A stretch of 32,000 nt of DNA. It comes from Trichlorobacter lovleyi SZ (GTDB lineage Bacteria; Desulfobacterota; Desulfuromonadia; Geobacterales; Pseudopelobacteraceae). Below are positions 3,728 to 25,579 of this stretch, piece after piece. The notes under the pieces are model-generated. The model searched no databases and was not told the DNA's origin. It saw only the letters and a list, made by a program, of their open reading frames with translations. The DNA is taken from contig NC_010814.1 in assembly GCF_000020385.1 (NCBI RefSeq), forward strand, positions 3,885,762-3,917,761, given 5' to 3'. A program made the position numbers and the translations under genes. How positions within the stretch are numbered: position 1 is the first letter of the stretch; each line of letters starts with the position of its first letter.

Positions 3728-4210
3728 ATGGCATCCTACGACTTCACCCGCCTCAGACGTCTCACGATCATCCACAACGTGGTGCAGGTCGGCCTGCTGG
3801 GCCTGTTAATGTTTATGGCCTACAATTTTATGCTGGCTTTTGCCAAGTATGGCATGTCCGGTTTGTTTGTCAAAAGCTTCATCATGGCGGTGGTCGTGCA
3901 GCTGATCTGTATGTATCCTGCTTGGTGGCTTGCCGGCAAGGATGTTGAGGTAGAAGTTGAGACAAGCCTTGTTGGAGTTACGCCGGAACAATTGGTGGCA
4001 CTGCGCCGCAGACGGCTGCTTGGTGATATCTGGAAGCTCTCTGCCCTGGGCGCCTTTGTGGTCTTTATTTTCATGTCACCCAGTGTGGAAAAAGGACGGG
4101 CGGCATCGCTGTTCCTGTCGGTTTCCTACTATTCGTTCCTGCTGGTGGCCATTACCTACTTCCAGTGCTTTAACTTCATTGCCAAAAAGCGCCGCAGGGA
4201 ACTTGCCTGA
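3728..4210 (+). CDS. Hypothetical integral membrane protein (about 4 TM segments)
   Basis: 160 aa. AAGGA Shine-Dalgarno before the ATG, four long hydrophobic stretches, basic C-terminus (KKRRREL). A strong terminator hairpin follows. No recognisable family motif. Confidence 0.55.
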   Translation: MASYDFTRLRRLTIIHNVVQVGLLGLLMFMAYNFMLAFAKYGMSGLFVKSFIMAVVVQLICMYPAWWLAGKDVEVEVETSLVGVTPEQLVALRRRRLLGDIWKLSALGAFVVFIFMSPSVEKGRAASLFLSVSYYSFLLVAITYFQCFNFIAKKRRRELA

Positions 4211-4270: not shown

Positions 4271-4825
4271 CTAGTCATTATCACGGCCATGGCCGCGGCC
4301 ATGTTTTTTGTGTTCCTTCCACTCCTCGCGCGCTTCCCGCTTGTCCTCCTTACGACGGTCCTTCTCATCCCGCCACTCTTCTCGTTCCTCCCGACCAGGC
4401 CGGAAATGTTTACCGCGGTAGTGATCACGATTCGCATGGTAGGCGCGGTACTCATGATCACGGTAGTAGCGGATCTTCTCCACCTTGTATCGTCTGACCG
4501 GTGCCGGGAGCTGCTCGTAGCGGGTTACCACCCAGGGACCGTTATAATGGTTGGCCCGATACCAGTGATTACCTTGAAAGAGGTAGTAGACGCCGGAAAT
4601 GAGAACCATGTCGTAGGACATATCAACTCCCACATAGAACCCCAGTGACGATGGCGCCAGAAAGAGCGGCGGCGCATCAAAGACCACCCGGGGCGCCACC
4701 ACAACCGTGGGAGGCGGCGGTACCGGCACTCCCAGATTAACATTAACATTGAAATTGGACTCAGCTGCTCCAAGTGACGGGACCGCCATAAGTGCTGCCA
4801 GGACCAGAGCTGTTGCGATTCGCAT
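4271..4825 (-). CDS. Hypothetical exported protein with an extremely charged R/E/K/H/D-rich C-terminal tail
   Basis: 184 aa. Signal peptide MRIATALVLAALMAVPSLGAAES. AGGAGG Shine-Dalgarno upstream. Pro-rich linker. Aromatic core GVYYLFQGNHWYRANHYNGPWVV. Last ~60 aa are nearly all charged (REEREEWRDEKDRRKEDKREAREEWKEHKKHGRGHGRDND). Confidence 0.6.
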   Translation of the reverse strand: MRIATALVLAALMAVPSLGAAESNFNVNVNLGVPVPPPPTVVVAPRVVFDAPPLFLAPSSLGFYVGVDMSYDMVLISGVYYLFQGNHWYRANHYNGPWVVTRYEQLPAPVRRYKVEKIRYYRDHEYRAYHANRDHYRGKHFRPGREEREEWRDEKDRRKEDKREAREEWKEHKKHGRGHGRDND

Positions 4826-4869: not shown

Positions 4870-7386
4870 TCAGTGCCATGATTGGAAAAACTGCTCCATC
4901 CGGCTGAATACCTGATCCAGCGGAGCGATCAGTTGTGCGGCCTCAGGCAAAGACTTTCTGAAACGCGCACCATAATTCTTGGTGACCATCCGGCTATCAA
5001 GAATCAGCACGGCCCCACGGTCAGTCCGGCTGCGGATCAGGCGGCCAAAGCCCTGACGCAGCTTGAGCACCGCCTGGGGCACTGACATCTCACGGAACGG
5101 ATCGCCCCCCAGGCTGGTGATCCGCTCTGCCCTTGCCTGCTGGATCGGCTCTGTCGGCACCTGAAACGGCAGCCGGGCAATCACCACCAAGCGCAGGGCA
5201 TCCCCCTTGACATCCACCCCTTCCCAGAAAGAATCAGTACCGAACAGCACGGCATGCTGTTCCTTGCGGAAACGGGCCAACAGCTGGTGCCTGCCGCCCC
5301 CCTCACCCTGCCGCAATACCGTTATTCCCTGATTTTCCAGTTCAGCTTTAAGGGCAGCATGAGTCTGACGCAGCAGGTCAAAAGAGGTGAACAGCACAAA
5401 GGCGCCTCCCTGCGAGATGCTGATCGCCCGCAGCACTGCATCAGCCAATGGCTGGCGAAAGGCAAAACTGGTTGGGTCAGGTAGATCCCGGGGGATGGCC
5501 ACCAATGACTGCTCTGCATAATCAAAGGGTGAGGCCAGTGCCAGCTCCTGCAGCCGCTCCGACTCCAGCAGGTCAAGGCCGGTCCTTCTGCGCAGATAGC
5601 CGAATGAGCCACCCACGGTCAGGGTGGCTGAGGTCAGCACCACCGTGGGGATCGGATCAAGCAAAGCGGTCTTGATGGTCTCTGCCACATCCAGGGGTGC
5701 CACACAGACCGTGGCCTGGCTGCCCCGGCTGGTCTGCTTGGCCTCCAGCCAGCAGCAGGCCTCAGGATCATCAGTGCAGAACCAGGCCAGTTCACGGCTG
5801 ATCGCCACCAGACGCTGACCAATGCCAAAGGCGTCAGTTAACAGCCCGTTCACCGCCTGCATGACCGTGTCCGGCAGCTTGGCAGCAGCCCGGTCCAGTG
5901 CTCCCAGACCATCGGCCAGTTCCTGCAACTGCTCGCCCAGACGCTTCAGGCGGGTCTCCAGCTCATGCCAGAACGGTGTGGCACGCACCTCTGCGGTAAT
6001 CCTGCGCTTCAGCTCACCACCCCGCTGATCATCTCCTTGTTGCATTTCACCTTGCAAGGCCTGGGCAAGCCAGTCCAGCTCACGGTCAACCGCGCCTGCC
6101 AGCTCATGGACCTGGGGCAGTAGGGCAGCCTCGATCAGGCCGGATAGTTCCTGATACAGGGCATCCAGCTCTTCCGGTAGTTCCTTGCCGATCTTGGTGT
6201 TCAGTACGCTCAGGATGCCGGCTCTGCCACCGGATGGCGCCAGCCTTGACAGTTGCTTCATCAACCCGGCCCGGCTGATCCTGACTGACAAGGCGCCGGT
6301 GGCCGCCTCTTCCAGGTGGTGGGCCTCATCAATAATCAGACGGCTGAAGGGTGGCAGAATGGCAACCGCATCATAACCGCTCTCACGGCGCAGGGCGATA
6401 TCAGCCAGCAGCAGGGCGTGGTTGACCACCAGCAGCCGGGCTGAAGCGGCATCGCGGCGCGCCTTGTAGAAAAAGCAGCGGTTAAACTCCGGACAGCGGG
6501 AACGGCCACACTGGTCTGCCTCGCAACGCAGGTCATCCCAGACCTCCCAGGCAGGATGGAAGGAGAGATCGCTCAGGCAGCCGCTGCGAGTGGTTTCGCT
6601 CCAGGCAGCTATGGCCTGTAACTCCTCCGAAGCGCTGTCCGGGAACAGGGACGGCTCATCCAGCACCCCGCCCAGTTTGCGCAGGCAAAGGTAGTTGCCG
6701 CGCCCCTTGACCAGACAGGCGGTGAACTCCGTGGCAGCATGGCGTTGCAGCAGGGGAATATCCTTCTTGATCAGCTGTTCCTGCAGGTTGATGGTGTTAG
6801 TGGAGATCACCACCCGTTGATCATTACGCATGGCCCAGAGCAGGGCAGGCACCAGATAGGCCAGTGATTTGCCGGTGCCGGTACCGGCCTCAATCAGCGC
6901 CACGGTGTTGTCGTTAAAGGCGGTTGCCACGCTAAAGGCCATCCGCACCTGTTCATCCCGTTTTTCATACCCCTTAAGATGCTTAGCCAGCATCCCGTCA
7001 GAGCCAAAGACCTTTTCCAGCTCATCAAAATTAAGCCGTTCGCCGGTGCGGGGGGTATGGGGCGCCACCACCAGATAGCAACGCTGGCAGTCATTGTCGA
7101 TGATGCCGAAACCGATCCCGTTGTTGCCGCAGATCGAGGCCAGATCAAGATCAGCATCAGAGGGGATCAGCTCGCCGGAGGGGTGGTTGTGCAGCACCAT
7201 CTGGCCGGCCGAGGCGCGGGAGAGGATGGCCGGTACGGCGTGCTTATTGCCACGGGCAATGGCCTCGGCAGAGACCATCACACCATTGTCGTCCAGGCAG
7301 GCGATGAAGAAGACCTCATTACCACGGGCCTGTTTGATCTCAAAACGGATCAGGGCGCTGCAATCAGTTGAAAAGGTTGCGGGCAT
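4870..7386 (-). CDS. RadC-like JAB/MPN domain fused to a DinG/XPD-family Fe-S ATP-dependent DNA helicase
   Basis: 838 aa. The N-terminal ~110 aa carry a complete JAMM motif: upstream Glu in GNEVFF, then HNHPSGELIPSDAD (HxH-x7-S-xx-D). Helicase motifs: motif I AGTGTGKS, DEAH box IIDEAHHLEE. Cys cluster typical of the XPD/DinG 4Fe-4S domain (NYLC ... DQCGRSRCPEFNRC). C-terminal motifs TSATL, GTDSFWEGVDVKG, QGFGRLIRS. Confidence 0.85.
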   Translation of the reverse strand: MPATFSTDCSALIRFEIKQARGNEVFFIACLDDNGVMVSAEAIARGNKHAVPAILSRASAGQMVLHNHPSGELIPSDADLDLASICGNNGIGFGIIDNDCQRCYLVVAPHTPRTGERLNFDELEKVFGSDGMLAKHLKGYEKRDEQVRMAFSVATAFNDNTVALIEAGTGTGKSLAYLVPALLWAMRNDQRVVISTNTINLQEQLIKKDIPLLQRHAATEFTACLVKGRGNYLCLRKLGGVLDEPSLFPDSASEELQAIAAWSETTRSGCLSDLSFHPAWEVWDDLRCEADQCGRSRCPEFNRCFFYKARRDAASARLLVVNHALLLADIALRRESGYDAVAILPPFSRLIIDEAHHLEEAATGALSVRISRAGLMKQLSRLAPSGGRAGILSVLNTKIGKELPEELDALYQELSGLIEAALLPQVHELAGAVDRELDWLAQALQGEMQQGDDQRGGELKRRITAEVRATPFWHELETRLKRLGEQLQELADGLGALDRAAAKLPDTVMQAVNGLLTDAFGIGQRLVAISRELAWFCTDDPEACCWLEAKQTSRGSQATVCVAPLDVAETIKTALLDPIPTVVLTSATLTVGGSFGYLRRRTGLDLLESERLQELALASPFDYAEQSLVAIPRDLPDPTSFAFRQPLADAVLRAISISQGGAFVLFTSFDLLRQTHAALKAELENQGITVLRQGEGGGRHQLLARFRKEQHAVLFGTDSFWEGVDVKGDALRLVVIARLPFQVPTEPIQQARAERITSLGGDPFREMSVPQAVLKLRQGFGRLIRSRTDRGAVLILDSRMVTKNYGARFRKSLPEAAQLIAPLDQVFSRMEQFFQSWH

Positions 7387-7696
7387 GAAGATCAGGATTG
7401 TTCGTCAGACAATAAGTTCATATCTGAGTATGGTGCCGGGCGTATCTCCCCCAGCGACTTCAGGCAGGTCTTCCGGTCCTCATCACCCCCAAAAATCGTA
7501 GCGCGGTTGTTGTCGCGTTGCATAATCTGATATGGGTGACCAGGCGCTATGCTGCAGGCTGTTTTTAACATCGGTTGGATAGTAATGACAGTTATTCGCA
7601 TTGGCAATACAAATGTGGTGAATGGCCCGAATGGTGCGTTGTCGGCAATAGTACATGCACCTGAAAGCAACTCGACTCAACAGATGGTGTTCGCTA

Positions 7697-7724
7697 TTGA
7701 CAGCACACATCATTCCGCTAAGCT
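7697..7724 (+). promoter_or_regulatory. Weak candidate sigma-70 promoter for the kinase gene (TTGACA-16 nt-TAAGCT)
   Basis: Perfect -35 TTGACA at 7697-7702, 16-nt spacer, poor -10 TAAGCT at 7719-7724. It would leave almost no leader before the ATGs at 7726/7732, and no Shine-Dalgarno is visible there. Sequence match only. Confidence 0.25.
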
Positions 7725-7725
7725 A

Positions 7726-9447
7726 ATGCCTATGTTAAACAGAATCTGCTTTCTAATAATCATCATTTCATTTTTCGGTGGGTTGCCGCTCCATGCTGAG
7801 CAGGCTACCCCCGACAATGCCCATGTGATCGTCGTCGGAGGTAACAGCAACTACCCGCCCTATCAATTTATCGGCAAAAATGGCCAACCTGACGGATATA
7901 TTGTCGATCTGACCAAGGCGATTGCAGGCGTGATGGGGATGAAGATTGATATCCGCCTCGGAGATTTCGGGGGAATTCTGGATGAGTTGGAGAATGGCCG
8001 GATTGATATCCTTGAAGGTCTTTCCTATTCAGAAAGCAGGGCGCAGCACTACGATTTTTCCCCCCCGCACTCAATTATCGTGCATGCCATCTTTGCACGA
8101 AAGGGGACTAAAGAGGTTAAAACGCTGGATGAACTGCGGGGTAAAAAAGTGTTGGTGCATCGGGGTGGCGGTATGCACAGCTACATGAAGGAGCACAATT
8201 ACGCCCACGACCTAGTCCTGACCGATAGCCCGCGTGAAACCTTGCAACAGCTTGCCGTCGGCAAATGTGATTATGCCGTCGTGGCACTTTTGCCCGGTAT
8301 GTATATCATTCGCGAAGAAAACCTGACCAATATTGTGCCGATAGCCAAGAACATCATCCAGCAGCGTTACTATTGTTATGCGGTCAAAAAAGGAAATACC
8401 GAGCTCCTTGCCAGGTTTAACGAAGGGCTCACCATCCTTAAGAAAACCGGCCAGTACGATGCAATATATAACAAATGGCTGGGGGTACTGGAACCGCAAA
8501 GGGTTTCCTGGAGGGTTATTGCAAAATATGCCGCGTTAGTGGTGATTCCGCTTGTGTTGGTACTTATGGGAACGGTGCTCTGGTCTTATTCCCTGCGCAA
8601 GCAGGTGGCACAGCGAACAGAATCTCTTTCAAAGGCTCTGGTTGAGTTGCGCTCCAATCAGCAGCAACTTGTTCAAGCGGATAAAATGGCTGCGTTGGGA
8701 ATACTCGTGTCAGGCGTAGCCCACGAAATCAATAACCCGACCGGTATCATCCTGATGAATATGCCGACGCTGAGAAAGATTCTCCGCGATGCCGAGCGCA
8801 TTCTGGACCAATACCGCGAGGAGCATGGCGATTATTCGCTCGGCGGACTTTCGTACGAACGTGTGCGGCAGGAATTGCCGCTCCTTCTGGAAGAAATGCA
8901 GGATGGAGCAGAGCGAATCAAACATACCGTAAATGACCTTAAGAATTTTGCCCGCAAGGATGATGAAGCCGCCAAGGTGTTACTTGATTTCAATGCCGTG
9001 GTACAGACGGCGGTACGGCTGGTCGATGTAACAACCAGAAAAGCTACCAATAGTTTTACAACAAGCTATGCAGACAATCTTCCGGGGATCATGGGCAACG
9101 CGCAACGCATCGAGCAGGTGGTGGTGAACCTGATTATGAATGCCTGCCAGGCGCTTCCTGATCCCGGCCGTGCCATTGCCATCTCGACCCACTTTGATCC
9201 ACAAGCCAACGTCGTTGTCCTTACCGTCAAGGATGAAGGATCCGGCATTCCGCCGGAGCATCTGCCGCGTCTGACGGACCCTTTCTTTACCACCAAACGT
9301 GAAAGCGGGGGGACGGGATTGGGGCTCTCTGTCTCAGCCTCTATTATTAAGGATCACGGCGGAGAGCTTACCTTCGACTCAGCGCATGGTAAGGGAACGA
9401 CGGTTAAATGTACGTTTCAGGCCGCCATGGAGGGCAAGAAGCTGTGA
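7726..9447 (+). CDS. Sensor histidine kinase with a periplasmic family-3 solute-binding (Venus-flytrap) sensor domain
   Basis: The track ORF starts at 7549, but I place the start at ATG 7726 (or 7732). The signal/TM1 segment MPMLNRICFLIIIISFFGGLPLHA begins there, and the 59 upstream residues have no features. The SBP_bac_3-like domain runs from VIVVGGNSNYPPYQF to YNKWLG. It is followed by one TM, a coiled linker, H-box SGVAHEINNP and G-boxes KDEGSGI and GGTGLGLS. Confidence 0.85.
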   Translation: MPMLNRICFLIIIISFFGGLPLHAEQATPDNAHVIVVGGNSNYPPYQFIGKNGQPDGYIVDLTKAIAGVMGMKIDIRLGDFGGILDELENGRIDILEGLSYSESRAQHYDFSPPHSIIVHAIFARKGTKEVKTLDELRGKKVLVHRGGGMHSYMKEHNYAHDLVLTDSPRETLQQLAVGKCDYAVVALLPGMYIIREENLTNIVPIAKNIIQQRYYCYAVKKGNTELLARFNEGLTILKKTGQYDAIYNKWLGVLEPQRVSWRVIAKYAALVVIPLVLVLMGTVLWSYSLRKQVAQRTESLSKALVELRSNQQQLVQADKMAALGILVSGVAHEINNPTGIILMNMPTLRKILRDAERILDQYREEHGDYSLGGLSYERVRQELPLLLEEMQDGAERIKHTVNDLKNFARKDDEAAKVLLDFNAVVQTAVRLVDVTTRKATNSFTTSYADNLPGIMGNAQRIEQVVVNLIMNACQALPDPGRAIAISTHFDPQANVVVLTVKDEGSGIPPEHLPRLTDPFFTTKRESGGTGLGLSVSASIIKDHGGELTFDSAHGKGTTVKCTFQAAMEGKKL

Positions 9448-10856
9448 ATAATGATCTATATCCGGCATTTGGAGTGCTGCTTGTGGATGACGAACCGGCA
9501 TGGCTTCGTTCTCTCTCTCTTGCTCTGGAAAGCAACTCGGGGATTACCAATGTCGTGCTCTGCAAGGACAGCCGCGAGGTCATGGGCATCCTGGAGCGTC
9601 AGAATATCGGCCTTATCCTCCTTGATCTCACCATGCCGCATCTTTGCGGTGAAGAATTGCTGACACTCATTGGCGAGCAGTATCCCGATATCGCCACGAT
9701 TGTGGTAAGCGGTCTGAATCAGGTCGGTACGATTGTTACCTGCATGAAGCTTGGCGCATATGATTATTACGTTAAAACCGACGACGAAGAACGGATCGTC
9801 TGTGGTGTTCTCCGTGCCATTAAACTGCTGGAGTTGCAGCGGGACACCAAAGAGATGACACAACGCTTTGTGACATGCGAGTTGAAACACCCGGAAGCAT
9901 TTCATGCAATCTGTACCGTTGATCGTGCCATGCAGTCAATCTTTGCCTACATTGAGGCGGTGGCCCAAAGTCCACTACCGCTACTCATTACCGGAGAAAG
10001 CGGCGTTGGCAAAGAGCTCCTGGCCAAAGCGGCTCACGACCTCAGCGGATGCAAAGGAGAACTGGTTGCAGTAAACGTCGCCGGACTCGACGATACGGTT
10101 TTTGCCGACACCCTCTTCGGCCATGTCCGAGGTGCCTTCACCGGCGCGGAAAGTGTTCGCCGCGGCATGATCGAAGTGGCAACCAATGGAACGCTATTTC
10201 TCGATGAAATTGGTGATCTCAGCACGGCATCGCAGGTCAAGTTACTCCGCCTTATTCAGGAAGGGGAATATTTCCCGCTTGGCAGCGACCAACCCAAACG
10301 CCTCAAGGCGCGGATCATCGTTGCCACCCACCAGAATCTGGAAACAAAAGAGGCGTCCGGCGCGTTCCGCCGGGATCTGTTCTATCGGCTTCGCACCCAT
10401 CATGTTCTGATTCCACCACTACGCAAACGCATAGACGACCTTCCCTATCTGCTGGACCTCTTTCTGGAAGAAGCGGCTCGCACGCTGGGCAAAAAGAAGC
10501 CGACACCGCCGCCCAGCCTTGTGCCACTACTGTCTACCTACAGTTTTCCCGGTAACATCCGCGAGCTTAAGGCCATGATCTATGACGCCGTAAGTACACA
10601 CAAAGGTCATATGCTCTCGATGGATTCATTTCTAAAGGCCATCAACAACTCTTCAGAACATCCCGTGACGATGGCCAGTGTACCGGAGCATAATCCCTTT
10701 GCCTGCTTCGAGCGGCTGCCAACCTTTGCCAATGCCGCAACCTACCTTCTTGAAGAAGCGCTCACACGCGCCAAAGGCAATCAGACTCTGGCTGCCCGTC
10801 TGCTCGGTATTTCCCAGCCGTCTCTCTGGAAAAGACTCAAACTCGCACGTCGCTAA
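9444..10856 (+). CDS. Sigma-54-dependent (NtrC-family) response regulator: REC + AAA+ enhancer-binding domain + Fis-type HTH
   Basis: I chose the GTG at 9444, which overlaps the kinase TGA stop (GTGA) and gives VNNDLYPAFGVLLVDDEP. REC residues are DDE, the phospho-acceptor in LLDLTMP, and a conserved Lys in YVK. Walker A GESGVGKE. Intact sigma-54 contact loop GAFTGA. C-terminal HTH NQTLAARLLGISQPSLWKRLK. Confidence 0.9.
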   Translation: MNNDLYPAFGVLLVDDEPAWLRSLSLALESNSGITNVVLCKDSREVMGILERQNIGLILLDLTMPHLCGEELLTLIGEQYPDIATIVVSGLNQVGTIVTCMKLGAYDYYVKTDDEERIVCGVLRAIKLLELQRDTKEMTQRFVTCELKHPEAFHAICTVDRAMQSIFAYIEAVAQSPLPLLITGESGVGKELLAKAAHDLSGCKGELVAVNVAGLDDTVFADTLFGHVRGAFTGAESVRRGMIEVATNGTLFLDEIGDLSTASQVKLLRLIQEGEYFPLGSDQPKRLKARIIVATHQNLETKEASGAFRRDLFYRLRTHHVLIPPLRKRIDDLPYLLDLFLEEAARTLGKKKPTPPPSLVPLLSTYSFPGNIRELKAMIYDAVSTHKGHMLSMDSFLKAINNSSEHPVTMASVPEHNPFACFERLPTFANAATYLLEEALTRAKGNQTLAARLLGISQPSLWKRLKLARR

Positions 10857-10859
10857 ACA

Positions 10860-10900
10860 GCTATTGCCAAAGTCTATACTCTATAGATTTTGGCAATAGC
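10860..10900. promoter_or_regulatory. 41-bp nested palindrome; candidate upstream activator site for the sigma-54 regulator and/or a transcript-end hairpin of the kinase-regulator operon
   Basis: GCTATTGCCAAAGTCTATA-CTC-TATAGATTTTGGCAATAGC. That is 18 Watson-Crick pairs plus one G-T position around a 3-nt centre. It starts 4 nt after the regulator stop, and its centre lies about 165 bp upstream of the GG of the sigma-54 promoter. No U-tract follows. Confidence 0.45.
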
Positions 10901-10913
10901 CATTCTATCCCGG

Positions 10914-10993
10914 CCAATTACCTGCCTTTCAACACTTCCGCAATATCCCTCCATAGCCTGCGGCTATAACGGATACGTTCTGTCCAATTACCT
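10914..10993 (+). repeat. Exact 10-bp direct repeat CCAATTACCT (x2, 70 bp apart) bracketing a small palindrome in the control region
   Basis: CCAATTACCT at 10914-10923 and 10984-10993. ATAGCC-TGC-GGCTAT palindrome at 10953-10967 between them. An AT-rich tract follows (about 10986-11032). Confidence 0.4.
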
Positions 10994-11045
10994 TAATTTG
11001 TTTAAAACAATAGTAAATATAGGCTGTTGTGCATAAACGCCCCTT

Positions 11046-11061
11046 TGGCACCGTTCGTGCT
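11046..11061 (+). promoter_or_regulatory. Sigma-54 (-24/-12) promoter of the flavocytochrome operon
   Basis: TGGCAC-CGTTC-GTGCT matches TGGCAC-N5-TTGCW with exact GG-N10-GC spacing. It lies about 60 nt upstream of the ATG at 11124 and is followed by the strong Shine-Dalgarno AAAGGAGGAG (11111-11120). A sigma-54 activator gene sits immediately upstream. Confidence 0.6.
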
Positions 11062-11123
11062 CCTACTGTGATTGGAATTACTATCAAGGAGGACGCTTCG
11101 GATGTCACAAAAAGGAGGAGTTT

Positions 11124-12914
11124 ATGAGACTGTTTAGAGCAGGCACCGTACTACTTTGTTCGCTGGTTTTGCTGGTCGGAAGCTCGCAGGTGTGGGCAGA
11201 TGGAGGGACTTCAAAAACCACATTCCTGGCAGGTATTCACAAAAAGAACCAGATGAGTTGTGCCGATTGTCATGGCAAATCTCTTGCCGTTGATGACAGC
11301 GAGACGGTTCTAAACAAAAAATGTGTTGAATGCCATGGGACATTTGCAAGTCTTGCAAGCAAGAAAAAAGAACATATCAATCCGCATAAGTCCCACCTGG
11401 GAGAGGTCAACTGTACCACGTGCCACAAGGGACATACGGCGTCCAAGGCGTACTGCAATTACTGCCATTCGTTCGGTATGAAAATCCCTGCTATGGGCAG
11501 CGTCGAACAGTCCAATAGTAAAAAATGGATTCAGGAAACAGCTCCCAAAAAATCTGACACAGCCAAGACTGTTACGGAACGTGCCGACATTGTTGTTATC
11601 GGTGCCGGTGGCGCCGGTTATGTGGCTTCGATCACTGCCCATGACGCCGGAGCCAAGGTAATCCTCTTGGAAAAGATGCCGATAACCGGTGGAAACAGCA
11701 TGCTTGCAGCAGGCGGCATTAATGCGGCAGCAACACGAATCCAGAAAGAACGCGGCATTCAGGATGATCCGGCTGAAATGGTTAAAGAGACCATGAAAGG
11801 CGGAAGAGAAAAGAACGACCTTGAACTGGTAAAAATCCTCTCGTACCGTTCATCCGACGCAGTTGATTTTCTGGTATCCCTTGGCGCAGACATGAGCGAT
11901 TTGGTGCGCTCAGGCGGTGTACACGCCGACAGAACCCACAGACCTGTAGGCGGAGCAGCGGTAGGCCCCCATCTGGTAAAAGTCTACAGAGAAAATGCTG
12001 CTAAACGCAACATTGACGTACGCGTAAATTCTGAAGTCGTAAAGATCCTCACTGACAAAAACGGCAGGGTAACCGGCGTACAGGTAAAAGGTAAACACAG
12101 AGGGTTGTACACCATAAAGGCTAAAGCGGTAATCGACACAGCAGGCGGTTTTGCTGCAAACAATGATCTGGTTGGTTTTTACAAACCGCAGTTCAAAGAA
12201 ACAGCTTCTTCAAACCAGCCCGGCGCAACCGGAGAAGGTGTTGTTCTGGCTGAAAAAATTGGTGCAAAAGTGATCGACATGGAGCAGATCCAGATCCATC
12301 CGACCATGGGCGGCGAAACCAAGGTGCTTGTCTCTGAAACGGTTCGGGGCAGCGGCGCCATTCTGGTAAATCATGCGGGCAAGCGTTTTGTTAATGAGCT
12401 GACAACCCGCGACAAAGCCTCAGCAGCAATCTTTGCACAGCCGGAGAAGACAGCATTTCTTGTCCTTGGCGAAGATATCCGCAAGAGCAATGTGCAGATA
12501 GACGGGTATATCGAGCTCGGCCTCGTACAAGAATCCGATTCAATTGAAGGATTAGCAACAAAGATGGGCGTTCCTGCCGCAACCCTTGCCGCAACAATTG
12601 CATCATACAACAAGGCCTATGACGCAAAGAATGACCCTGAGTTCAAACGTCAAGACATCCCGCGAAAAATTGCCGGTCCCAAGTACTATTCCATCTGGGT
12701 TAAGCCAGGCCGCCATCACACTATGGGCGGCGTCAAAATCAATACGGAAGGTCAGGTAATCAGCACAAATGGCACACCGGTGGTTGGTCTGTATGCCGCC
12801 GGAGAGGTTACCGGTGGCGTCCATGGCTGGAACCGGCTGGGTGGCAACGCCATTACCGATACTGTTGTGTTCGGTCGTATCGCCGGGGCAAGTGCAGCCA
12901 AATTTGTCAAGTAG
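11124..12914 (+). CDS. Exported tetrahaem flavocytochrome c, soluble fumarate-reductase-like (Shewanella FccA/Fcc3 type)
   Basis: 596 aa. Signal peptide MRLFRAGTVLLCSLVLLVGSSQVWA. Four CxxCH sites (CADCH, CVECH, CTTCH, CNYCH). FAD dinucleotide fold DIVVIGAGGAGYVAS. Fcc3 active-site blocks QIHPT, SETVRGSGAILVN, LTTRDKA, RHHTMGGV and WNRLGGNAI. Confidence 0.85.
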   Translation: MRLFRAGTVLLCSLVLLVGSSQVWADGGTSKTTFLAGIHKKNQMSCADCHGKSLAVDDSETVLNKKCVECHGTFASLASKKKEHINPHKSHLGEVNCTTCHKGHTASKAYCNYCHSFGMKIPAMGSVEQSNSKKWIQETAPKKSDTAKTVTERADIVVIGAGGAGYVASITAHDAGAKVILLEKMPITGGNSMLAAGGINAAATRIQKERGIQDDPAEMVKETMKGGREKNDLELVKILSYRSSDAVDFLVSLGADMSDLVRSGGVHADRTHRPVGGAAVGPHLVKVYRENAAKRNIDVRVNSEVVKILTDKNGRVTGVQVKGKHRGLYTIKAKAVIDTAGGFAANNDLVGFYKPQFKETASSNQPGATGEGVVLAEKIGAKVIDMEQIQIHPTMGGETKVLVSETVRGSGAILVNHAGKRFVNELTTRDKASAAIFAQPEKTAFLVLGEDIRKSNVQIDGYIELGLVQESDSIEGLATKMGVPAATLAATIASYNKAYDAKNDPEFKRQDIPRKIAGPKYYSIWVKPGRHHTMGGVKINTEGQVISTNGTPVVGLYAAGEVTGGVHGWNRLGGNAITDTVVFGRIAGASAAKFVK

Positions 12915-12944
12915 GATCGCGCGTTACTAACAACGCAAGTAAAT

Positions 12945-12979
12945 GGAGTTCCTGAGCTCATGGGGAGTTCAGGAACTCC
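12945..12979 (+). other. Intercistronic stem-loop between the flavocytochrome and MFS genes (no U-tract)
   Basis: GGAGTTCCTGAGCTC (12945-12959), loop ATGGG, GAGTTCAGGAACTCC (12965-12979). The 15-bp stem includes one G-U. It starts 31 nt after the flavocytochrome stop and is followed by ACACCC rather than a T-run. Confidence 0.5.
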
Positions 12980-13017
12980 ACACCCAGGCTTTGAGAAGCA
13001 TCCGAGAGGTTATACCT

Positions 13018-14262
13018 ATGGAAACCCGTAGTCTGTTTCGGGCACTGTTCCTGATCAACTTCGCCATCACCCTCGGTTTTGGCATTGCCGACGCATTCTT
13101 CTCTATGTACGTTTTCAGCCTGGGAGCCAGGGGCATCCTTCTGGTGCTGCCGCTGGTACTCTATTCACTCTCAAAGATTCTCTTCAGCCCTTTTATGGGG
13201 GCCTGCTCCGACAAGATAGGACCAAGAAGAATTGCTTCCATCAGTCTCGGTCTCTATCTACTCGTATCAATCTGCTATTTCTTCACTACCAGTCTGATGC
13301 TTATCACCATTATGCGCCTGTTTCAGGGGATCGGCTGCGCAATGTTCAGACCGTTGGTTGCCTCTCTTGTGGGTGAGAGGACGACAAGTGAAAAACGTGC
13401 AACCGTCTTGGGGACCTTTGACATTTCCTTTTACGGTGCTTTAAGCGTCGGGCCGGTTGTCGGCGGAATACTCAAGGATATCTGGGGCTTTGAGGGGATT
13501 TTTGCAGTGCTGACGCTGCTTTGCATCGTGGCGCTGTTGGTGGCACTGTTTTACATTCCTGCACAAAGACTCTCCAAGAACCATGCGGCAGAACGCAAAA
13601 CGGAAAACCAATGCAAGTGCAGGACTATTTTTACGATGGCCCGGCAAAACTCCCTACGGGGGCTTCTTGCCTTCATCTTTGGCCGGGCCTGCGGGATATC
13701 GCTGCTGAGTGCCTTCCTGCCGATACTGCTAACAACCAAGCTCGGATTGAGCGGCATACAGACCGGATTGGTGATGGCCTCCGGCTCCCTGGTATTCACC
13801 CTCCTCCTGCGGCCAATCGGCATGCTTTCAGATAAGACACCGCGCAAGCCTCTGATTGTCGCCGGCGGCACCATCGTATCGTTGCTCTACTTTCTGATAC
13901 CTGTTGTGTCCGGATTTAGCCAGATACTGTTCCTGGGGTTGGGAATAGGCATGTTCAGCGTGCTCTCTCAGCCCGCCTGTACAACGCTCCTGATAGAAGA
14001 GGGAGTCCGTCACGGCATGGGGTTAACCGTTGGAATCTTTAATTCGGTGCTGAACCTGGGGTTTATTGCGGGTCCGTTATTCGGAGCAGGTATGCAACAC
14101 ACGTTCGGCCTGTCCTCGGTTTTTTATGCCGCTGGAATCTTGGGGTTTGTTGCAGTTGGACTGTTTATCACAACAATCGTGTCAGAGGATACGCCATCTT
14201 CAGCGCTTTTCCTTGAGAAGGGCGACGTCACACTATCTTACGTAACATCAGAAAAGCTGTAA
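13018..14262 (+). CDS. Major facilitator superfamily (MFS) transporter, about 12 TM segments
   Basis: Start moved from 12943 to ATG 13018. A GAGAGG Shine-Dalgarno lies 7 nt upstream, TM1 begins immediately (METRSLFRALFLINFAITLGF), and the 12943 ATG sits inside the hairpin. Two six-helix halves are separated by a basic central loop (QRLSKNHAAERKTENQCK). Confidence 0.8.
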   Translation: METRSLFRALFLINFAITLGFGIADAFFSMYVFSLGARGILLVLPLVLYSLSKILFSPFMGACSDKIGPRRIASISLGLYLLVSICYFFTTSLMLITIMRLFQGIGCAMFRPLVASLVGERTTSEKRATVLGTFDISFYGALSVGPVVGGILKDIWGFEGIFAVLTLLCIVALLVALFYIPAQRLSKNHAAERKTENQCKCRTIFTMARQNSLRGLLAFIFGRACGISLLSAFLPILLTTKLGLSGIQTGLVMASGSLVFTLLLRPIGMLSDKTPRKPLIVAGGTIVSLLYFLIPVVSGFSQILFLGLGIGMFSVLSQPACTTLLIEEGVRHGMGLTVGIFNSVLNLGFIAGPLFGAGMQHTFGLSSVFYAAGILGFVAVGLFITTIVSEDTPSSALFLEKGDVTLSYVTSEKL

Positions 14263-14300
14263 TCAAGAAATACAACTATTTAAACCAAAGGAGCTCACAC

Positions 14301-15608
14301 ATGAAATTTGCAAAACTTGGTTTGGCGGGGATAATCGTTGCTGGCCTTGCGACCAGTTCGTATGGAGCAGACTCACTGTTTGATGCCTTTAAAAACGGGA
14401 AAACAAACGGGGAGCTCAGGGCATGGTATTTTGATAGAAAAGTAGAAAATGCCCCTACTAGTTCAGCAGGCATCTTCACTACCGCGGCAATATTAGGCTA
14501 TGTTACTGATACTTTTTACGGTTTTAGCTTAGGAGGAACATTTGAGGCAGTCTATGCTCCTGAGGCTAGTTCTGGTGCAAAGAATGTTTACAAAAGCGAC
14601 ATGTACGCCTCAGGTGCAGTTCTTTCAGAGGCGTATTTACAATATGGCATAGCGAAAACGGCAGTTAAAGCCGGACGGCAATATATTTCTACGCCGTTGG
14701 TTACCGGAAGCGGTACGAGAATTGTTAAAGAATCCTTTCAAGGGGCTATGCTTACCAGTAAAGACCTCTCTGATACGACGATAACCGGAGGCTATATTAA
14801 TAAGTTTCAAGGTAGAACCGGCTATGCCACAGGAGATTCCGTGGGTGATGCTCCGGATTTCGCCTCAAGATCAATATTCCTTGGTATTTCAGGGTCAACA
14901 ACCTATGAATTTAATGGAGCTTACACCGTTGCGGTTATTAACAAGTCCATTCCAAACCTGACACTGACTGGACAATATCTTAATGTGGGCGACGTGAAGG
15001 TCGGTACAAAGAAATCAGATATCCATGTCTATTATACTGATGCTAAATACTTACTCCCAATGGATGGGTACAAATTGGAATTTGCTCTTAACTTTCGCGG
15101 ATCGCAGACAGAGGATCCACTATCTGCTACAATAAAGTATAATGGTACGTATGCTGCTGGTAAAATTGCGGTCAGCGAGCTGGCAGGATTTGGAGCAAGC
15201 TTTGTTGCCGCAACAACCAGCCGTGATGATGCAGTGATAGCCGGTATGGGGAACGGCCCTTCAAGTTACACGGCAACACTGATAAGGGCAAGTACAGCCA
15301 CCTTGACAGCCAATACCAATTCGTACCGGTGCGATGTGACTTATGATTTTTCAAAAATCGGTCTTGCCGGGCTTAAAGGTGCATTGCAGTATGGTTGGAC
15401 AAATCAAAACAGAGTAGGGACGGCAGCAACCAGTTCAGATTATACTTCATATGCAGGGAGTTTGGATTACGCTGTTCCTCTGCTTAAGGGGCTGTCTTTG
15501 GCAGTACAGTATGAAAAACAGGAGAATGAGACCACGAAGTATACCTCCAATACCAAAACCTCCATTGACACCGATGAGTTGCGAATTAAACTGGCCTATA
15601 AATTCTGA
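14301..15608 (+). CDS. Outer-membrane beta-barrel porin, OprD-family-like
   Basis: 435 aa. AAGGAG Shine-Dalgarno. Signal peptide MKFAKLGLAGIIVAGLATSSYGA. N-terminal signature DSLFDAFKNGKTNGELRAWYFDRK resembles the OprD-family start. Alternating beta-strand pattern with a terminal aromatic residue (LRIKLAYKF). Confidence 0.7.
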   Translation: MKFAKLGLAGIIVAGLATSSYGADSLFDAFKNGKTNGELRAWYFDRKVENAPTSSAGIFTTAAILGYVTDTFYGFSLGGTFEAVYAPEASSGAKNVYKSDMYASGAVLSEAYLQYGIAKTAVKAGRQYISTPLVTGSGTRIVKESFQGAMLTSKDLSDTTITGGYINKFQGRTGYATGDSVGDAPDFASRSIFLGISGSTTYEFNGAYTVAVINKSIPNLTLTGQYLNVGDVKVGTKKSDIHVYYTDAKYLLPMDGYKLEFALNFRGSQTEDPLSATIKYNGTYAAGKIAVSELAGFGASFVAATTSRDDAVIAGMGNGPSSYTATLIRASTATLTANTNSYRCDVTYDFSKIGLAGLKGALQYGWTNQNRVGTAATSSDYTSYAGSLDYAVPLLKGLSLAVQYEKQENETTKYTSNTKTSIDTDELRIKLAYKF

Positions 15609-15643
15609 AAGCCTCTTGTCGAAATTGCACTTGCTTTATGACA

Positions 15644-15675
15644 AAGCCTCCGGGGTAGTAAAGTCCCGGAGGCTT
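15644..15675. terminator. Terminator hairpin shared by the convergent porin (+) and ABC-F (-) genes
   Basis: AAGCCTCCGGG (15644-15654), 10-nt loop, CCCGGAGGCTT (15665-15675). The 11-bp perfect stem is followed by GTTG on the plus strand (weak U-tract). Confidence 0.55.
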
Positions 15676-15713
15676 GTTGCCTAACCCTCACCCCCACTTT
15701 CCCTAGGGTGAAA

Positions 15714-17663
15714 TTATGACAACTCCTCCCACTGCGCGTACAGTTCCTCAAGCCTGGTGTTCAGTGCTGTATGCTGCTCACCGGCAGCCAGCCCTTGCTC
15801 AGGATCATCAAAGAAGCCGGGCCTGTTCATCTCTGCCTCAAGCTCAGCAATTTTTTGCTCAACCGTGGCGATCTCCTTCTCAATCGACTGTTGCTGTTTC
15901 TCCCGTGCCTGTTCTTCCTTTTTACGACGTTTCTGTTCTTCACGATCTTTAAGACGGTCTTCCTTATTCTGGGGGGGTAGCAACGCTACAGCGGATACGT
16001 TTGGTGCCGGTTCGGCTGCCGTCTTGATCTGGCGCGCTGATGCAACAGGTGTCTGGGCTGATTCGCTCTCTTTTTTTGATAAATAGTATTCGTAATCGCC
16101 GTAATAATCGGTCAGCTTGCCTTCGCCAACCTCTACAATCCGCGTTGCCAGACCGTTCACAAAGTAGCGGTCGTGGGAGACAAACACCACGGTGCCGTCA
16201 AAGCCCTTCAGGGCATCCAGCAGCACCTCTTTGCTGAACAGGTCCAGGTGGTTGGTGGGCTCATCCATCAGCAGCAAGTTAGAGGGACGCAGCAGCATCT
16301 TGGCCAGGGCCAGGCGGTTACGTTCACCACCGGACAGCACCCCCACCTTTTTATGGATGTCATCACCGGAAAACAGGAACGCCCCCAGGATATCCCGCAG
16401 CTTGGGTACCATCTCGTAGGGGCAGTCACTGTACAGCTCATCATAGGCGGTTCTGGTGGCATCCAGCACATTGGCCTGATCCTGGGCAAAGTAATCAGCC
16501 ACCACATTATGGCCTGGCTTCAAGCTGCCTTCCTGATACTCGCCACCGGCCAGTACGGCCATCAGGGTGGATTTTCCTGCCCCGTTATGCCCCACCAAGG
16601 CAACCCGTTCCCCTTTTTCAACGGTCAGATCAACCTTGTTCAGGACAACATTGCTTCCGTAGCTGCGGGTCAGCCCCTGCAGTTCCAGCACAATCCTGCC
16701 ACTCTTGGGGGCATCAGGAAACTGGAAGCGGATCTTCTTGCGCTCCGGCGGCAGTTCAATCCGTTCCACCTTCTCCAGCTGCTTGATCCGTGACTGCACC
16801 AGTGAGGCCTTGTTGGCCTGATAGCGGAAGCGGCGGATAAAGTCTTCGGTCTTCTGGACCTCTTCATCCTGCAGCCGTTTGGCCTCCCGTAGGGCAGAGA
16901 CCCGCTCTTCCCGTTGGATCAGGTAGGTGGAGTAGGAACAGTGGTAGTCGGCAATGGTGTGGTTCCAGACCTCGGCGATGCGGGAGCAGACCTGATCCAT
17001 GAAGAAACGGTCGTGGGAGACCAGGATAACAGAACCGGGGTAGGAGCAGAGATACTGTTCAAGCCAGTTGCGGGCCTCGATATCCAGGTGGTTGGTCGGT
17101 TCGTCCAGCAGCAGCACATCCGGTTTCTGCAGCAGCAGCCTGGCCAGGGCGATCCGCATCTGCCAACCACCGGAAAACTCGCCGCAGTCCTTGTGCCAGT
17201 CTTCCTGGCTGAACCCCAGACCTTTCAGCACGGTGCCGATCTCGGCCTCCATGGTGTAGCCGCCACGATGGCGGAACTGTTCCTGCAGTTCACCATAACG
17301 TGCCAGCAGGGCATCATGTCCGGCTGCATCGTGGGGCATCTGCTCCAGTTCCTGTCCCAGGCGGTGCAGTTCTTCTTCCAGCACCAGCAGTTCTGACAGG
17401 GCCGAACGGGCCTCGTGGAACAGCATCCGGCCACTGCTGACAATACCATCCTGCGGCAGATAGGCGGCCCTGGCACCCTTGGCCAGCTGGATATCACCGT
17501 TGCTTGATTCCTCAAGCCCGGCAATGATCTTCATCAGGGTGGATTTACCGGCCCCGTTTTCGCCGATCAGGGCCACCCGCTCACCCTTACGCAGGTGCCA
17601 GGAGATGTTCGCAAACAGAACACGACCGGAATAGTCTTTAGAAAGATTAACGAGTTGGAGCAT
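15714..17663 (-). CDS. ABC-F family ATPase (Uup/YheS-like, no membrane domain)
   Basis: 649 aa. Two ABC cassettes (Walker [10 protein letters not shown] and GHNGAGKST; signatures LSGGWQMR and LSGGERNR). Inter-domain linker. K/E-rich coiled C-terminal extension. Confidence 0.9.
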
Positions 17664-21849: not shown

Positions 21850-22784
21850 GGTTCGTTAAACCCGTAGGTCTTTCTGACCACATACCGTGGGCGCTTACGC
21901 ACTTCCTGGTAGATCCTGCCCACATACTCACCCACAATGCCGATCCCAAAGATGACGATCCCGATGAAGAAGAACAGGATGGCAAACAGGGTGAAGACCC
22001 CCTCCACCTCAGCCCCGATCATGAAGCGCCGGACAAACAGAAACAGCGCAAACCCGACTGACAGGAAGGAGGTGATGATCCCCAGCAGGGCAAACAGCTG
22101 CAGCGGAACCACGGAAAAGCCGGTCATCAGGTCGAAATTGAGCCGGATCAGCCGGTAAAAGGAGTACTTGCTCTCGCCCAGGGTCCGCTCGGCATGCCCC
22201 ACCATGATTTCGGTCGGATTTGACGAAAAGGTCTGGGCCAGGGCGGGGATAAAGGTGGTGGACTCACCGCATTGGTTGATGTTGTTGATGATGTTGCGAT
22301 GGTAGCCCCGCAGCATGCAGCCGTAGTCGCTCATCTGCATCCCGGTCATCTTGTTGGTGGTGATGTTGACGATCCGTGAGGCCACCCGGCGAAAGAGCGG
22401 GTCCTGCCGCTTTTCACGGATCGTGCCGACCACGTCATGGCCGGATTCTATTGCAGCAACCATGCGGGGGATCTCTTCCGGCGGGTTCTGCAGGTCGGCA
22501 TCCAGCGTGATGACAATTTCTCCGCTGCTGCGCTCAAAGGCCGCCAGGATGGCCATATGCTGACCAAAGTTACCGTTGAACTCCACCACTTTCACACCTG
22601 GATAGCGCTGTACATACCCACGCAGCATCTCCAGCGAACGGTCACGCGAACCGTCATTGGTGAAGATGATCTCGAACGGACGTCCCAGCGCCTGTGCCAC
22701 CGGATAGAGCCGGTCCATCAACGGCTGCAGCGACTTTTCCTCATTGTACACCGGAACGACAATACTGACGTATGGCGCTGTCAT
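21846..22784 (-). CDS. arnC: Undecaprenyl-phosphate 4-deoxy-4-formamido-L-arabinose transferase-like GT2 glycosyltransferase
   Basis: 312 aa. Motifs: VSIVVPVYNEE, ITLDADLQNPPEEIPRMV, DVVGTIR, DYGCMLRGY, GESKYSF. Two C-terminal TM segments and GEYVGRIY..RPRY, as in E. coli ArnC. Confidence 0.85.
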   Translation of the reverse strand: MTAPYVSIVVPVYNEEKSLQPLMDRLYPVAQALGRPFEIIFTNDGSRDRSLEMLRGYVQRYPGVKVVEFNGNFGQHMAILAAFERSSGEIVITLDADLQNPPEEIPRMVAAIESGHDVVGTIREKRQDPLFRRVASRIVNITTNKMTGMQMSDYGCMLRGYHRNIINNINQCGESTTFIPALAQTFSSNPTEIMVGHAERTLGESKYSFYRLIRLNFDLMTGFSVVPLQLFALLGIITSFLSVGFALFLFVRRFMIGAEVEGVFTLFAILFFFIGIVIFGIGIVGEYVGRIYQEVRKRPRYVVRKTYGFNEP

Positions 22785-23926
22785 GCTGTCTGCGTCTCCT
22801 TTGCCAGAGTCTCAACCATCTCTGTACCCCACAGCCCGACCTGCCAGCGGCGGATCCCCGGTATGGCCTGAAGCTGCTCCAGCGTCACCGGCTGCTGTTC
22901 GGCAATCCGCTCCAGCAACCAGTTCGGCGCCAGCAATCCGGAAGCCAGTCCCATACGGCTGCTGATCCCTTCACGCCATTGCTTGAGCCGTGTAATCCTC
23001 GCCTTGATGCCCGGATTGGGCTCTCCCCTGCCCCGGGGAAAGCGGGGCAGATCTGCTTCAGCAACGGCAAGCCCCTGCCGGACTACTGTCAGCAGCTGTT
23101 CACCATAACGGCCAAGTAGACGTGGTGTCAGTCCCGCTATTCCGTTCATATCACGAACTGCAGCAGGTACCAGTTCAGCAATTTTAAGCAATGCCTCTGC
23201 CGGTATAACCTTGAAGGCGGGCCGGTCGGCCTCCCGCGCCTGCTGATCCCGGAACTGCAGTAGAGCCTCCAGGATAGCCAGGTTACGGGGTTTTAACTTG
23301 CCGGCGCCCTTACAGTTCAGAAAGAGCGGCCCGTTGCCCTTTTCAGCAACCCGGTTGCCAACCAGCAGGGCGCATTCTTCAGCTACCCATTCCCTGCGGC
23401 CAAGCTGCTCCAGCCTTGCATGCAGTCGATCTGCCAGCTCCAGTAAATGGGCCGTATCATGGGCTGCATAATCAGCCATTTCTGTGGTTAACGGGCGCTT
23501 GCTCCAGTCTGCCTTCTGAAAACGCTTGTCCAGTTCGATCCCGAAATGTTCCCGCAGCAGCGCAGCAAGGCCAAATTCAGTAGCACCGGTAAACTGTGCC
23601 GCGACCATGGTGTCAAACATCTGCTGCACGACAATACCAAAATCGCGATGCAGCGAGCGGATATCATAATCGCCACCATGCAGCACCGTACGTAGTCCCG
23701 GTCGTGCCAGTAAGACCCTCAGTGGCGAAAGATCTGAAAGCCGTAACGGATCAACCAACCAGGTTCCGGCACGGTTTGAAAGCTGCAACAGGCAGACCTT
23801 TTCCCGGTAGTGGTGCATCGAGTCGGCTTCAAGGTCAAGCGCCAGCTCAGTCTCATCAGTCAGCTCAGCACAGAGCTGCTCAAGCTGATGGTTATGCTCT
23901 ATCACAGTATAGCGCAGTAGCGGCAT
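22781..23926 (-). CDS. rnd: Ribonuclease D (DEDD 3'-5' exonuclease + HRDC domain)
   Basis: 381 aa. Exo motifs LALDLEADS, HGGDYDIRSL and YAAHDTAHLLEL. The C-terminal HRDC-like region ends in LEQLQAIPGIRRWQ. Confidence 0.85.
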   Translation of the reverse strand: MPLLRYTVIEHNHQLEQLCAELTDETELALDLEADSMHHYREKVCLLQLSNRAGTWLVDPLRLSDLSPLRVLLARPGLRTVLHGGDYDIRSLHRDFGIVVQQMFDTMVAAQFTGATEFGLAALLREHFGIELDKRFQKADWSKRPLTTEMADYAAHDTAHLLELADRLHARLEQLGRREWVAEECALLVGNRVAEKGNGPLFLNCKGAGKLKPRNLAILEALLQFRDQQAREADRPAFKVIPAEALLKIAELVPAAVRDMNGIAGLTPRLLGRYGEQLLTVVRQGLAVAEADLPRFPRGRGEPNPGIKARITRLKQWREGISSRMGLASGLLAPNWLLERIAEQQPVTLEQLQAIPGIRRWQVGLWGTEMVETLAKETQTA

Positions 23927-25361: not shown

Positions 25362-25459
25362 AGCTGTTCCAAGCCTGTCACTCTACTGCAGTTGGCCCTG
25401 CTCTGCAACCGCAGATGCCAAGGCTGTTAACAAATCAAGCGCCCAACAGCAAAACAAGC

Positions 25460-25483: not shown

Positions 25484-25528
25484 AAACAATTTTAAGCAAA
25501 AACCCATAGTCTGATAGCAACTCAATCG

Positions 25529-25553: not shown

Positions 25554-25579
25554 GACAACAGGCTACGCCAGCCCTGTAT

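Follow-up and report, generated by a model that had tools for sequence, protein, structure and literature searches.

A RadC-like DinG in Trichlorobacter lovleyi SZ: a RadC-type JAB domain fused to a DinG/YoaA-family iron-sulfur helicase, and its possible action on DNA-bound substrates

Some subgroups of the DinG helicases, ExoDinG and EndoDinG, carry an N-terminal nuclease (PMC11981726; PMC3239186). Fusion of a JAB domain to a DinG helicase was first reported by Iyer et al. (NAR, 2011; PMC3239186), who found these helicases to be closely related to the ones bearing a 3'-5' exonuclease, and who proposed a nuclease role for the domain and a DNA-repair reading of the fusion. A 2025 review (PMC11981726) has since named the subgroup “RadC-like DinG”, stating that research on it is absent. 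The present analysis concerns a member of this subgroup, here called JAB-DinG, encoded in a 32,000-nucleotide (nt) stretch of the Trichlorobacter lovleyi SZ chromosome (NC_010814.1, positions 3,885,762 to 3,917,761 of the forward strand; “the window” below is this whole stretch). Both the fusion architecture and the idea of a nuclease or protease are thus already published (PMC3239186; PMC11981726), and the finding, while correct, re-derives computational work. New here are the coexistence of a canonical RadC in the same species, the loss of the JAB domain in some close relatives, the absence of a LexA box, of a defence context and of a partner gene shared across phyla, and an island of about 8.3 kb that parts this copy from an ABC-F gene adjoining it in relatives.

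The original prediction, which named no strand, was of a RadC-like JAB domain with an intact JAMM metal site joined to the N-terminus of a DinG-type helicase. The gene lies on the minus strand, where a single open reading frame (ORF) of 838 amino acids (aa) does fuse the JAB domain in one frame to a complete DinG-family iron-sulfur (Fe-S) helicase; every motif that had been quoted (GNEVFF, HNHPSGELIPSDAD, AGTGTGKS, DEAH and the four cysteines) was found exactly. The features of the gene, in window coordinates, are:

4870..7386, minus strand: RadC-like DinG ORF, 838 aa with an ATG start, the coordinates including the stop codon; JAB domain, linker and Fe-S superfamily 2 (SF2) helicase
7057..7386, minus strand: RadC-type JAB/MPN+ domain, aa 1-110 (Pfam RadC, 2QLC profile match, Foldseek)
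7315..7317, minus strand: codon of Glu24, the general-base glutamate of the JAMM site, in GNEVFF (aa 22-27); invariant in 87 of 87 aligned sequences
7150..7191, minus strand: HNHPSGELIPSDAD, aa 66-79, of the form HxH-x7-S-xx-D, with zinc ligands His66, His68 and Asp79, plus Ser76
6982..7056, minus strand: linker from JAB domain to helicase, aa 111-135, with a predicted local distance difference test score (pLDDT) of 82-95; the point at which JAB-less relatives start
4873..6981, minus strand: YoaA/DinG-type 5'-3' Fe-S SF2 helicase body, aa 136-838 (NCBIfam; sequence and fold matches to 6fwr)
6865..6888, minus strand: helicase motif I (Walker A), AGTGTGKS, aa 167-174, with G170, G172 and K173 invariant
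6475..6687, minus strand: Fe-S cluster module, with Cys234, Cys293, Cys298 and Cys304 (cysteine conservation in the alignment)
6319..6330, minus strand: DEAH box (motif II), aa 353-356; D353 and E354 invariant, H356 in 86 of 87
5776..6216, minus strand: helical arch insertion, approximately aa 391-537, with AlphaFold2 helices at 391-402, 405-446, 471-501 and 506-537
4942..5433, minus strand: Helicase_C_2 (motor domain 2), aa 652-815 (Pfam PF13307, 169.7 bits)
7387..7750, minus strand: upstream region, within the insertion missing from relatives; the promoter of this copy must be here

The N-terminal domain is a RadC-type JAB/MPN+ zinc-hydrolase domain without the helix-hairpin-helix (HhH) module of canonical RadC. 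That aa 1-110 would adopt the RadC-type fold around an intact JAMM site had been predicted, and family models, profile comparison and fold search agree on it. Pfam RadC (PF04002) matches aa 8-83 at 31.2 bits (cutoff 22.1; E = 2.3e-7), and a profile built from 33 such N-terminal domains matches the Chlorobium RadC crystal structure 2QLC at E = 7e-8, with AfJAMM appearing weakly. An AlphaFold2 model of aa 1-125 (mean pLDDT 90.5) has 2QLC chains as its top Foldseek matches (E = 6e-6 to 1.5e-5), followed by mostly MPN-fold proteins: CSN5, Rpn11, Pyrococcus JAMM1 (PfJAMM1), the Caldiarchaeum Rpn11 homologue and BubCD. In the models the domain runs from a helix (7-19) through strands at 25-31, 37-45 and 63-68 and a second helix (77-88) to strands at 92-97 and 103-107, and on this MPN fold the JAMM signature E-x(n)-H-x-H-x7-S-x2-D is present as E24 and aa 66-79. 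The fused domain shares with canonical RadC/YicR (UPF0758; 2QLC) the core signature HNHPSG-x3-PS-x2-D; canonical RadC has about 230 aa and an N-terminal HhH module (UPF0758_N), whereas the fused JAB lacks the HhH module and forms its own subfamily. UPF0758_N has no Pfam match in the 838-aa protein, and the NCBIfam RadC models, whose cutoffs are 180 and 134 bits, reach 25 and 20 bits.

The rest of the protein belongs with DinG and YoaA. The expected Pfam architecture of RadC/JAB, DEAD_2 and Helicase_C_2 was recovered in part, with RadC and Helicase_C_2 above their cutoffs and DEAD_2 at 17.9 bits, under its cutoff of 21; Pfam DEAD matches aa 161-210 at 34.8 bits. A sequence search finds E. coli DinG (6fwr) at 8.5e-50 and FANCJ as a detectable homologue, and the full-length AlphaFold2 model (pLDDT 92.7, predicted template modeling score 0.88), in which the long helical arch is visible, matches 6fwr at E = 8e-42 and also S. 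aureus DinG, CasDinG and XPD. The best-scoring NCBIfam model is YoaA (NF053712), with 582 bits in two stretches against an equivalog cutoff of 680; DinG PRK08074 scores 523 bits, below its equivalog cutoff, and E. coli-type DinG (PRK11747) 426 bits against 598. Motor domains, Fe-S module, arch, and ATP- and DNA-binding motifs are all as in E. coli YoaA and DinG, and from their spacing the four cysteines are probably the counterparts of the E. coli DinG cluster cysteines. Unlike JAB-DinG, the E. coli proteins have no catalytic domain at the N-terminus.

The resemblance in layout is to the ExoDinG of Firmicutes (S. aureus DinG, 8zef/9ii8), in which an N-terminal hydrolase likewise precedes a closely related helicase; there the hydrolase is a DEDD/DnaQ 3'-5' exonuclease of RNase H fold, and here it is a JAB/MPN+ zinc domain of deaminase-like fold. 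PRK08074 aligns from its position 237 to 929 with aa 119-834, and TIGR01407 from its position 240 with aa 136-833, so that the JAB domain and linker occupy the place of the exonuclease part of these models. The prediction that the JAB domain sits where Firmicute DinG carries a DEDD exonuclease, and that E. coli DinG has nothing there, is thus upheld; no exonuclease domain is among the Pfam matches of the 838-aa protein. All three hallmarks of RadC-like DinG are found: an N-terminal JAB domain, a helicase body in the same polypeptide, and a Glu/two-His/Asp center. The protein falls outside YoaA at equivalog level, E. coli-type DinG, canonical RadC, ExoDinG and the type IV CasDinG (Csf4). Described members such as those of Desulfuromonas soudanensis (A0A0M4DKS9; same phylum) and Kuenenia stuttgartiensis (A0A2C9CFG9) have the same domain order, a YoaA-like body, a JAB domain with E/HxH/D, a four-cysteine Fe-S module and an arch; there are no essential differences, the local peculiarity here being the insertion of about 8.3 kb that stands between the gene and the ABC-F gene upstream.

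Conservation of the fusion, and of its metal site, is extensive. The best 120 database homologues belong to Trichlorobacter, Geobacter and Desulfuromonadales. Almost all have 830-865 aa and the same precomputed Pfam domains, and they are 57-97% identical to JAB-DinG (95-97% for the closest, from Trichlorobacter and Geobacteraceae); 116 of them keep the JAMM motif. A library search with the JAB domain alone returned 409 clusters (50% identity) at E <= 1e-10, consisting of full-length fusions or fragments of them. Among the best 150 of these clusters 62 are full length, the shorter ones stopping in the linker or early helicase as fragments would, and HxH-x7-S-xx-D is present in 148 of the 150 representatives. 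Recurrence of the motif among homologues is far beyond chance, and this JAB subfamily is nearly always helicase-fused. In an alignment of 87 sequences with identities as low as 34%, E24, H66, N67, H68, P69, S76 and D79 are invariant together with the motor motifs; of the Fe-S cysteines, C298 and C304 are kept in all 87, C234 in 85 and C293 in 74. Codon comparison among close relatives gives ratios of nonsynonymous to synonymous substitution (dN/dS) of 0.10-0.21 over the JAB segment, compared with 0.03-0.18 over the helicase. As judged from these sequences, the metal site is under strong purifying selection. The fusion is shared by hundreds of homologues of 830-850 aa from several phyla; it occurs in Geobacterales, in Gemmatimonadota and, going by source names, in Spirochaetia/Treponema, Desulfobacteraceae, Desulfuromusa, Kuenenia (Brocadiales) and Halanaerobiales. 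Closer to home, the window DNA is about 88-89% identical to that of Trichlorobacter thiogenes ATCC BAA-34 and related metagenome-assembled genomes (MAGs), and the first 210 residues of JAB-DinG are 95-96% identical to theirs.

The fused JAB domain is not the only RadC-type domain in these bacteria. T. thiogenes and T. lovleyi also encode a separate canonical RadC of 230 aa (UPF0758_N plus JAB) at another, conserved locus, in the order DUF2062-DUF2786-BacA-radC; a near-identical relative of the Trichlorobacter canonical RadC is 24% identical to the fused JAB. The latter is therefore an additional, specialised paralogue without the HhH module, and plausibly the helicase takes over that module's DNA-targeting role.

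Some close relatives have dispensed with the fusion. Four of them (P0039, P0040, P0043 and P0044), whose helicases are 69-78% identical, have no JAB domain and begin in the linker, and tblastn found no JAB remnants upstream of them, so the losses are clean deletions or rearrangements. In a neighbor-joining tree of the helicase part, built with no bootstrap, the JAB-less relatives branch from within the Trichlorobacter clade that bears the domain, at three separate points. This placement indicates that the JAB domain was probably lost secondarily more than once, and hence that the helicase can persist without it. In one locus (L001, 5253-8220) canonical radC is succeeded 55 nt downstream by the JAB-less helicase, in place of the genes usually found there; the arrangement is suggestive of trans-complementation by canonical RadC, as a hint rather than as evidence. 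A Rosetta-stone link to canonical radC was considered and is not counted as evidence, the JAB-less helicases of four other loci (L002, L003, L004 and L071) having other genes upstream. In L004 a Schlafen/AlbA_2-Fic-like protein is encoded upstream, and in L071 gatA-gatB-glyoxalase-tetratricopeptide repeat (TPR) glycosyltransferase. The junction upstream of the helicase is prone to rearrangement.

What might such a protein do? The reading favored here, to which a probability of roughly one half is given, is that this RadC-like DinG member uses its helicase to deliver an active zinc hydrolase to DNA-bound substrates, with an amide bond the one most likely cut. The helicase would load on single-stranded DNA and move 5'-3' at the expense of ATP, as expected from its homology to E. 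coli DinG and YoaA and from the conservation of all motor and Fe-S residues. The JAB metal site would be catalytically active, as suggested by the absolute conservation of its Glu, His-x-His, Ser and Asp and by the purifying selection acting on it. Canonical RadC combines an HhH module with JAB, and here JAB is combined with a helicase, which points to a substrate on DNA and to a motor that delivers the hydrolase; the helicase would thus replace RadC's DNA-binding module and bring the JAB domain to a DNA-borne substrate at stalled forks or damage. The bond cut might then most likely be an amide, that is, a peptide or isopeptide of a DNA-bound or crosslinked protein or adduct, with a phosphodiester the main alternative. 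The coupling of cleavage to unwinding had been part of the original prediction; the idea agrees with published proposals and is correspondingly less novel than was assumed there.

Several observations weigh against this reading. Mutation of radC gives no repair phenotype in E. coli or in pneumococcus (literature cited in PMC11981726), and in the literature found no activity has been demonstrated for any RadC-type JAB domain. The searches retrieved only computational inference and negative genetics and no biochemical work on RadC-type JAB proteins, which bears out the view that the fusion had not been characterised biochemically. The N-terminal slot of the sister groups ExoDinG and EndoDinG is held by nucleases, favoring a nuclease here also. 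In close relatives a clean loss of the JAB domain has left the helicase in place, so the two activities can be separated and the helicase can do without a JAB domain. Finally, the genes surrounding JAB-DinG, clustered for 65 loci, include none for a ubiquitin-like protein, for E1/E2 or for another substrate, so that there is no obvious isopeptide substrate.

The lean towards amide-bond hydrolysis is a slight one, and the nuclease alternative is nearly as likely. The case for an amide bond draws on the characterised JAMM enzymes, every one of which is to our knowledge an (iso)peptidase, on the invariant serine beside the zinc ligands (a mono-zinc His2Asp site with Ser being typical of amide hydrolysis), and on the precedent of FANCJ, which unfolds DNA-protein crosslinks for the metalloprotease SPRTN. 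In the explicit form of the nuclease alternative, the JAB domain has displaced the non-homologous DEDD 3'-5' exonuclease of ExoDinG, to give a helicase-nuclease able to degrade or trim DNA as it is unwound. Iyer et al. (2011; PMC3239186) proposed as much from the relationship between JAB-DinG and Exo-DinG; the JAB domain lies exactly at the exonuclease position in the PRK08074 and TIGR01407 alignments, other DinG subgroups have N-terminal nucleases (PMC11981726), and RadC-type JAB domains recur in fusions with DNA-binding modules (HhH, primase, ArdC) and in none with ubiquitin-like partners (PMC3239186). Domain displacement is, however, an argument by analogy, and the invariant Ser76 with the mono-zinc site speaks for amide chemistry. 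We know of no demonstrated JAB-fold nuclease, and the displacement model is accordingly held as a tentative possibility. A narrower version of the favored reading has the JAB domain as a protease or amidase for adducts of protein or peptide carried by DNA, with the motor running 5'-3' into a DNA-protein crosslink or tight roadblock, unfolding it and passing it to the tethered zinc site, in what might be a single-chain bacterial counterpart of FANCJ-SPRTN; it is by analogy only, and somewhat unlikely as it stands. In the eukaryotic pair, as would happen here, a 5'-3' helicase of the DinG/XPD family runs into a DNA-bound protein and a zinc metalloprotease cuts it, but FANCJ and SPRTN are two separate proteins and SPRTN is of zincin type, unrelated to JAB. 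If the protease/amidase version is true, the activity of the whole RadC family would by extension be revealed, and canonical RadC would work in the same way by means of its HhH module.

Another possibility is that the JAB domain is non-catalytic, serving as a regulatory or recruitment module, for example for autoinhibition or for binding of a fork protein or DNA; it would then resemble non-catalytic MPN domains or stand in for the interaction of YoaA with chi (HolC). Such a role would fit with the several close relatives that lack the domain, with the fusobacterial versions that have no zinc ligands (PMC3239186), and with the absence of HolC from organisms with RadC-like DinG (PMC11981726), which would then need some other recruitment device. 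The invariance of all five catalytic residues in 87 of 87 sequences, and the retention of the motif in 148 of 150 representatives, would be hard to explain for a pure binding module, and a purely regulatory role thus appears disfavored and rather improbable. Non-catalytic MPN domains typically lose their catalytic residues. The remaining suggestion, that the fusion is a frameshift or misassembly artefact, or that the helicase belongs to a CasDinG-type defence system, is scarcely credible. For it may be cited the scores of PADLOC type IV DinG models, up to 456 bits, and the occurrence of the JAB domain as a separate short ORF in some database entries. The same single ORF is, however, present in hundreds of genomes from Geobacterales to Halanaerobiales, and the split forms examined are long-read frameshifts or the result of one in-frame TAA. 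The cas genes and array that adjoin CasDinG in type IV systems are not next to JAB-DinG, the PADLOC matches reflect general DinG homology, and the NCBIfam Csf4 model falls short of its cutoff (140 bits, where 400 are required). The conservation data refute the artefact for practical purposes, and the two-gene alternative, which the original prediction had itself raised as a possible refutation, is excluded by a single ORF conserved across hundreds of proteins from several phyla.

A search for natural split genes produced three long-contig candidates, none of them a convincing pair of separate JAB and helicase genes, and all were rejected. Two (L077 and L078, long-read contigs) have multiple breaks typical of indel errors and are taken as long-read frameshifts. 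The third, on a metagenomic contig (L079, 4001-6550), has a single in-frame TAA in the conserved helicase segment “YE-R-x-EQ-x-MA” of the JAB-DinG gene, leaving a JAB ORF of 147 aa and a helicase ORF of 697 aa, 12 nt apart; the TAA might have arisen by nonsense mutation or through a sequencing error, or it might mark a pseudogene.

Most bacterial lineages have RadC-type JAB domains, and what these do is said to have been a question for decades (“RadC, a misleading name?”). No contextual clue to their acting on DNA, or on substrates bound to it, is clearer than the fusion to DinG, and a helicase partner of known polarity, with assays available, makes this a convenient protein on which to ask whether they are nucleases or peptidases. 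If the JAB domain is a DNA-protein crosslink protease, a gap in bacterial crosslink repair would be filled. As the outcome of a genome scan, JAB-DinG is another member of a described and named family and a tractable entry point to RadC-type JAB function.

The surroundings of the gene give little away. Across the 65 loci, neighboring genes are conserved within lineages only: in Trichlorobacter a WXXGXW-repeat protein, a 160-aa membrane protein and a histidine kinase lie downstream (these three are also the neighbors in the window), in Geobacter a chromate-transporter pair lies upstream, and in Gemmatimonadota the gene stands beside unrelated housekeeping genes. The clustering found no operon partner common across phyla and no repair or defence partner among the neighbors; the defence-system reading was rejected, PADLOC giving only generic type IV DinG homology and the gene having no cas or defence neighbors. 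JAB-DinG, with its lineage-wise synteny and its neighbors of ordinary metabolic kind, is a vertically inherited chromosomal housekeeping gene of Geobacterales and not a mobile or defence element. Of its neighbors in the window, the gene directly downstream (4271-4825, minus strand) encodes a 184-aa protein with a signal-peptide-like N-terminus, the WXXGXW repeat and a charged tail rich in Arg, Glu, Lys and His, and a convergent gene (3728-4210, plus strand) encodes the 160-aa membrane protein, which is without a family match. Both are syntenic with JAB-DinG across the Trichlorobacter clade and not beyond it.

Regulation by the SOS response is rejected on the following ground: a search of the window, allowing up to one mismatch, for the E. 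coli LexA box (CTGT-N8-ACAG) and for GGTTNNCNNNNGNNNACC, which we take to be the Geobacter-type box (GGTT-N2-C-N4-G-N3-ACC), found neither upstream of JAB-DinG, with window counts at chance level, in keeping with the earlier impression that no LexA or SOS box was there. Two weak sigma-70-like sites lie upstream of the gene, at 7607-7579 and 7738-7709.

In T. thiogenes (L008, 4053-6003) an ABC-F gene on the same strand ends, stop codon included, 1 nt before the JAB-dinG ATG, which suggests that relatives without the insertion co-transcribe the two genes; only in the Trichlorobacter subclade are the two adjacent. The ABC-F product is a Uup-like ATPase of 648 aa (two ABC_tran domains and ABC_tran_CTD), encoded in the window at 15714-17663 (minus strand); E. 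coli Uup has reportedly been linked to DNA repair intermediates. In T. lovleyi the junction of the ABC-F gene with the dinG start codon is the precise site of an inserted block of about 8.3 kb (7375-15726), which T. thiogenes and two related MAGs do not have; with the two genes so separated, this copy must have its own promoter.

The island has five genes on the plus strand, encoding an SBP_bac_3-type sensor kinase, a sigma-54 response regulator, a flavocytochrome c (multihaem with flavin adenine dinucleotide, fumarate-reductase-like), a major facilitator superfamily transporter and an OprD-like porin. With a GC content of 0.45-0.53 it is poorer in GC than its flanks (0.55-0.62). Within 7375-15726 there was no sign of an integrase, nor did a direct repeat turn up on its flanks. 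A 19-nt inverted repeat (GCTATTGCCAAAGTCTATA / TATAGATTTTGGCAATAGC; 95% complementary, 3-nt spacer) closely follows the response-regulator gene, at 10860-10900, and the flavocytochrome c gene begins about 220 nt downstream of it; the repeat may be an activator-binding site or a terminator. A related word, similar to TTGGCAATAGCCA, recurs at 8333 and 11258.

Farther along the window, at 22781-31120 on the minus strand, is a yidC-mnmE-mnmG-rsmG run and, beyond it, an RNase D-like gene (DNA_pol_A_exo1 plus HRDC). Runs of this kind are typically origin-proximal, and the cumulative GC skew drops steadily across the same interval; the window may lie near the chromosomal origin.

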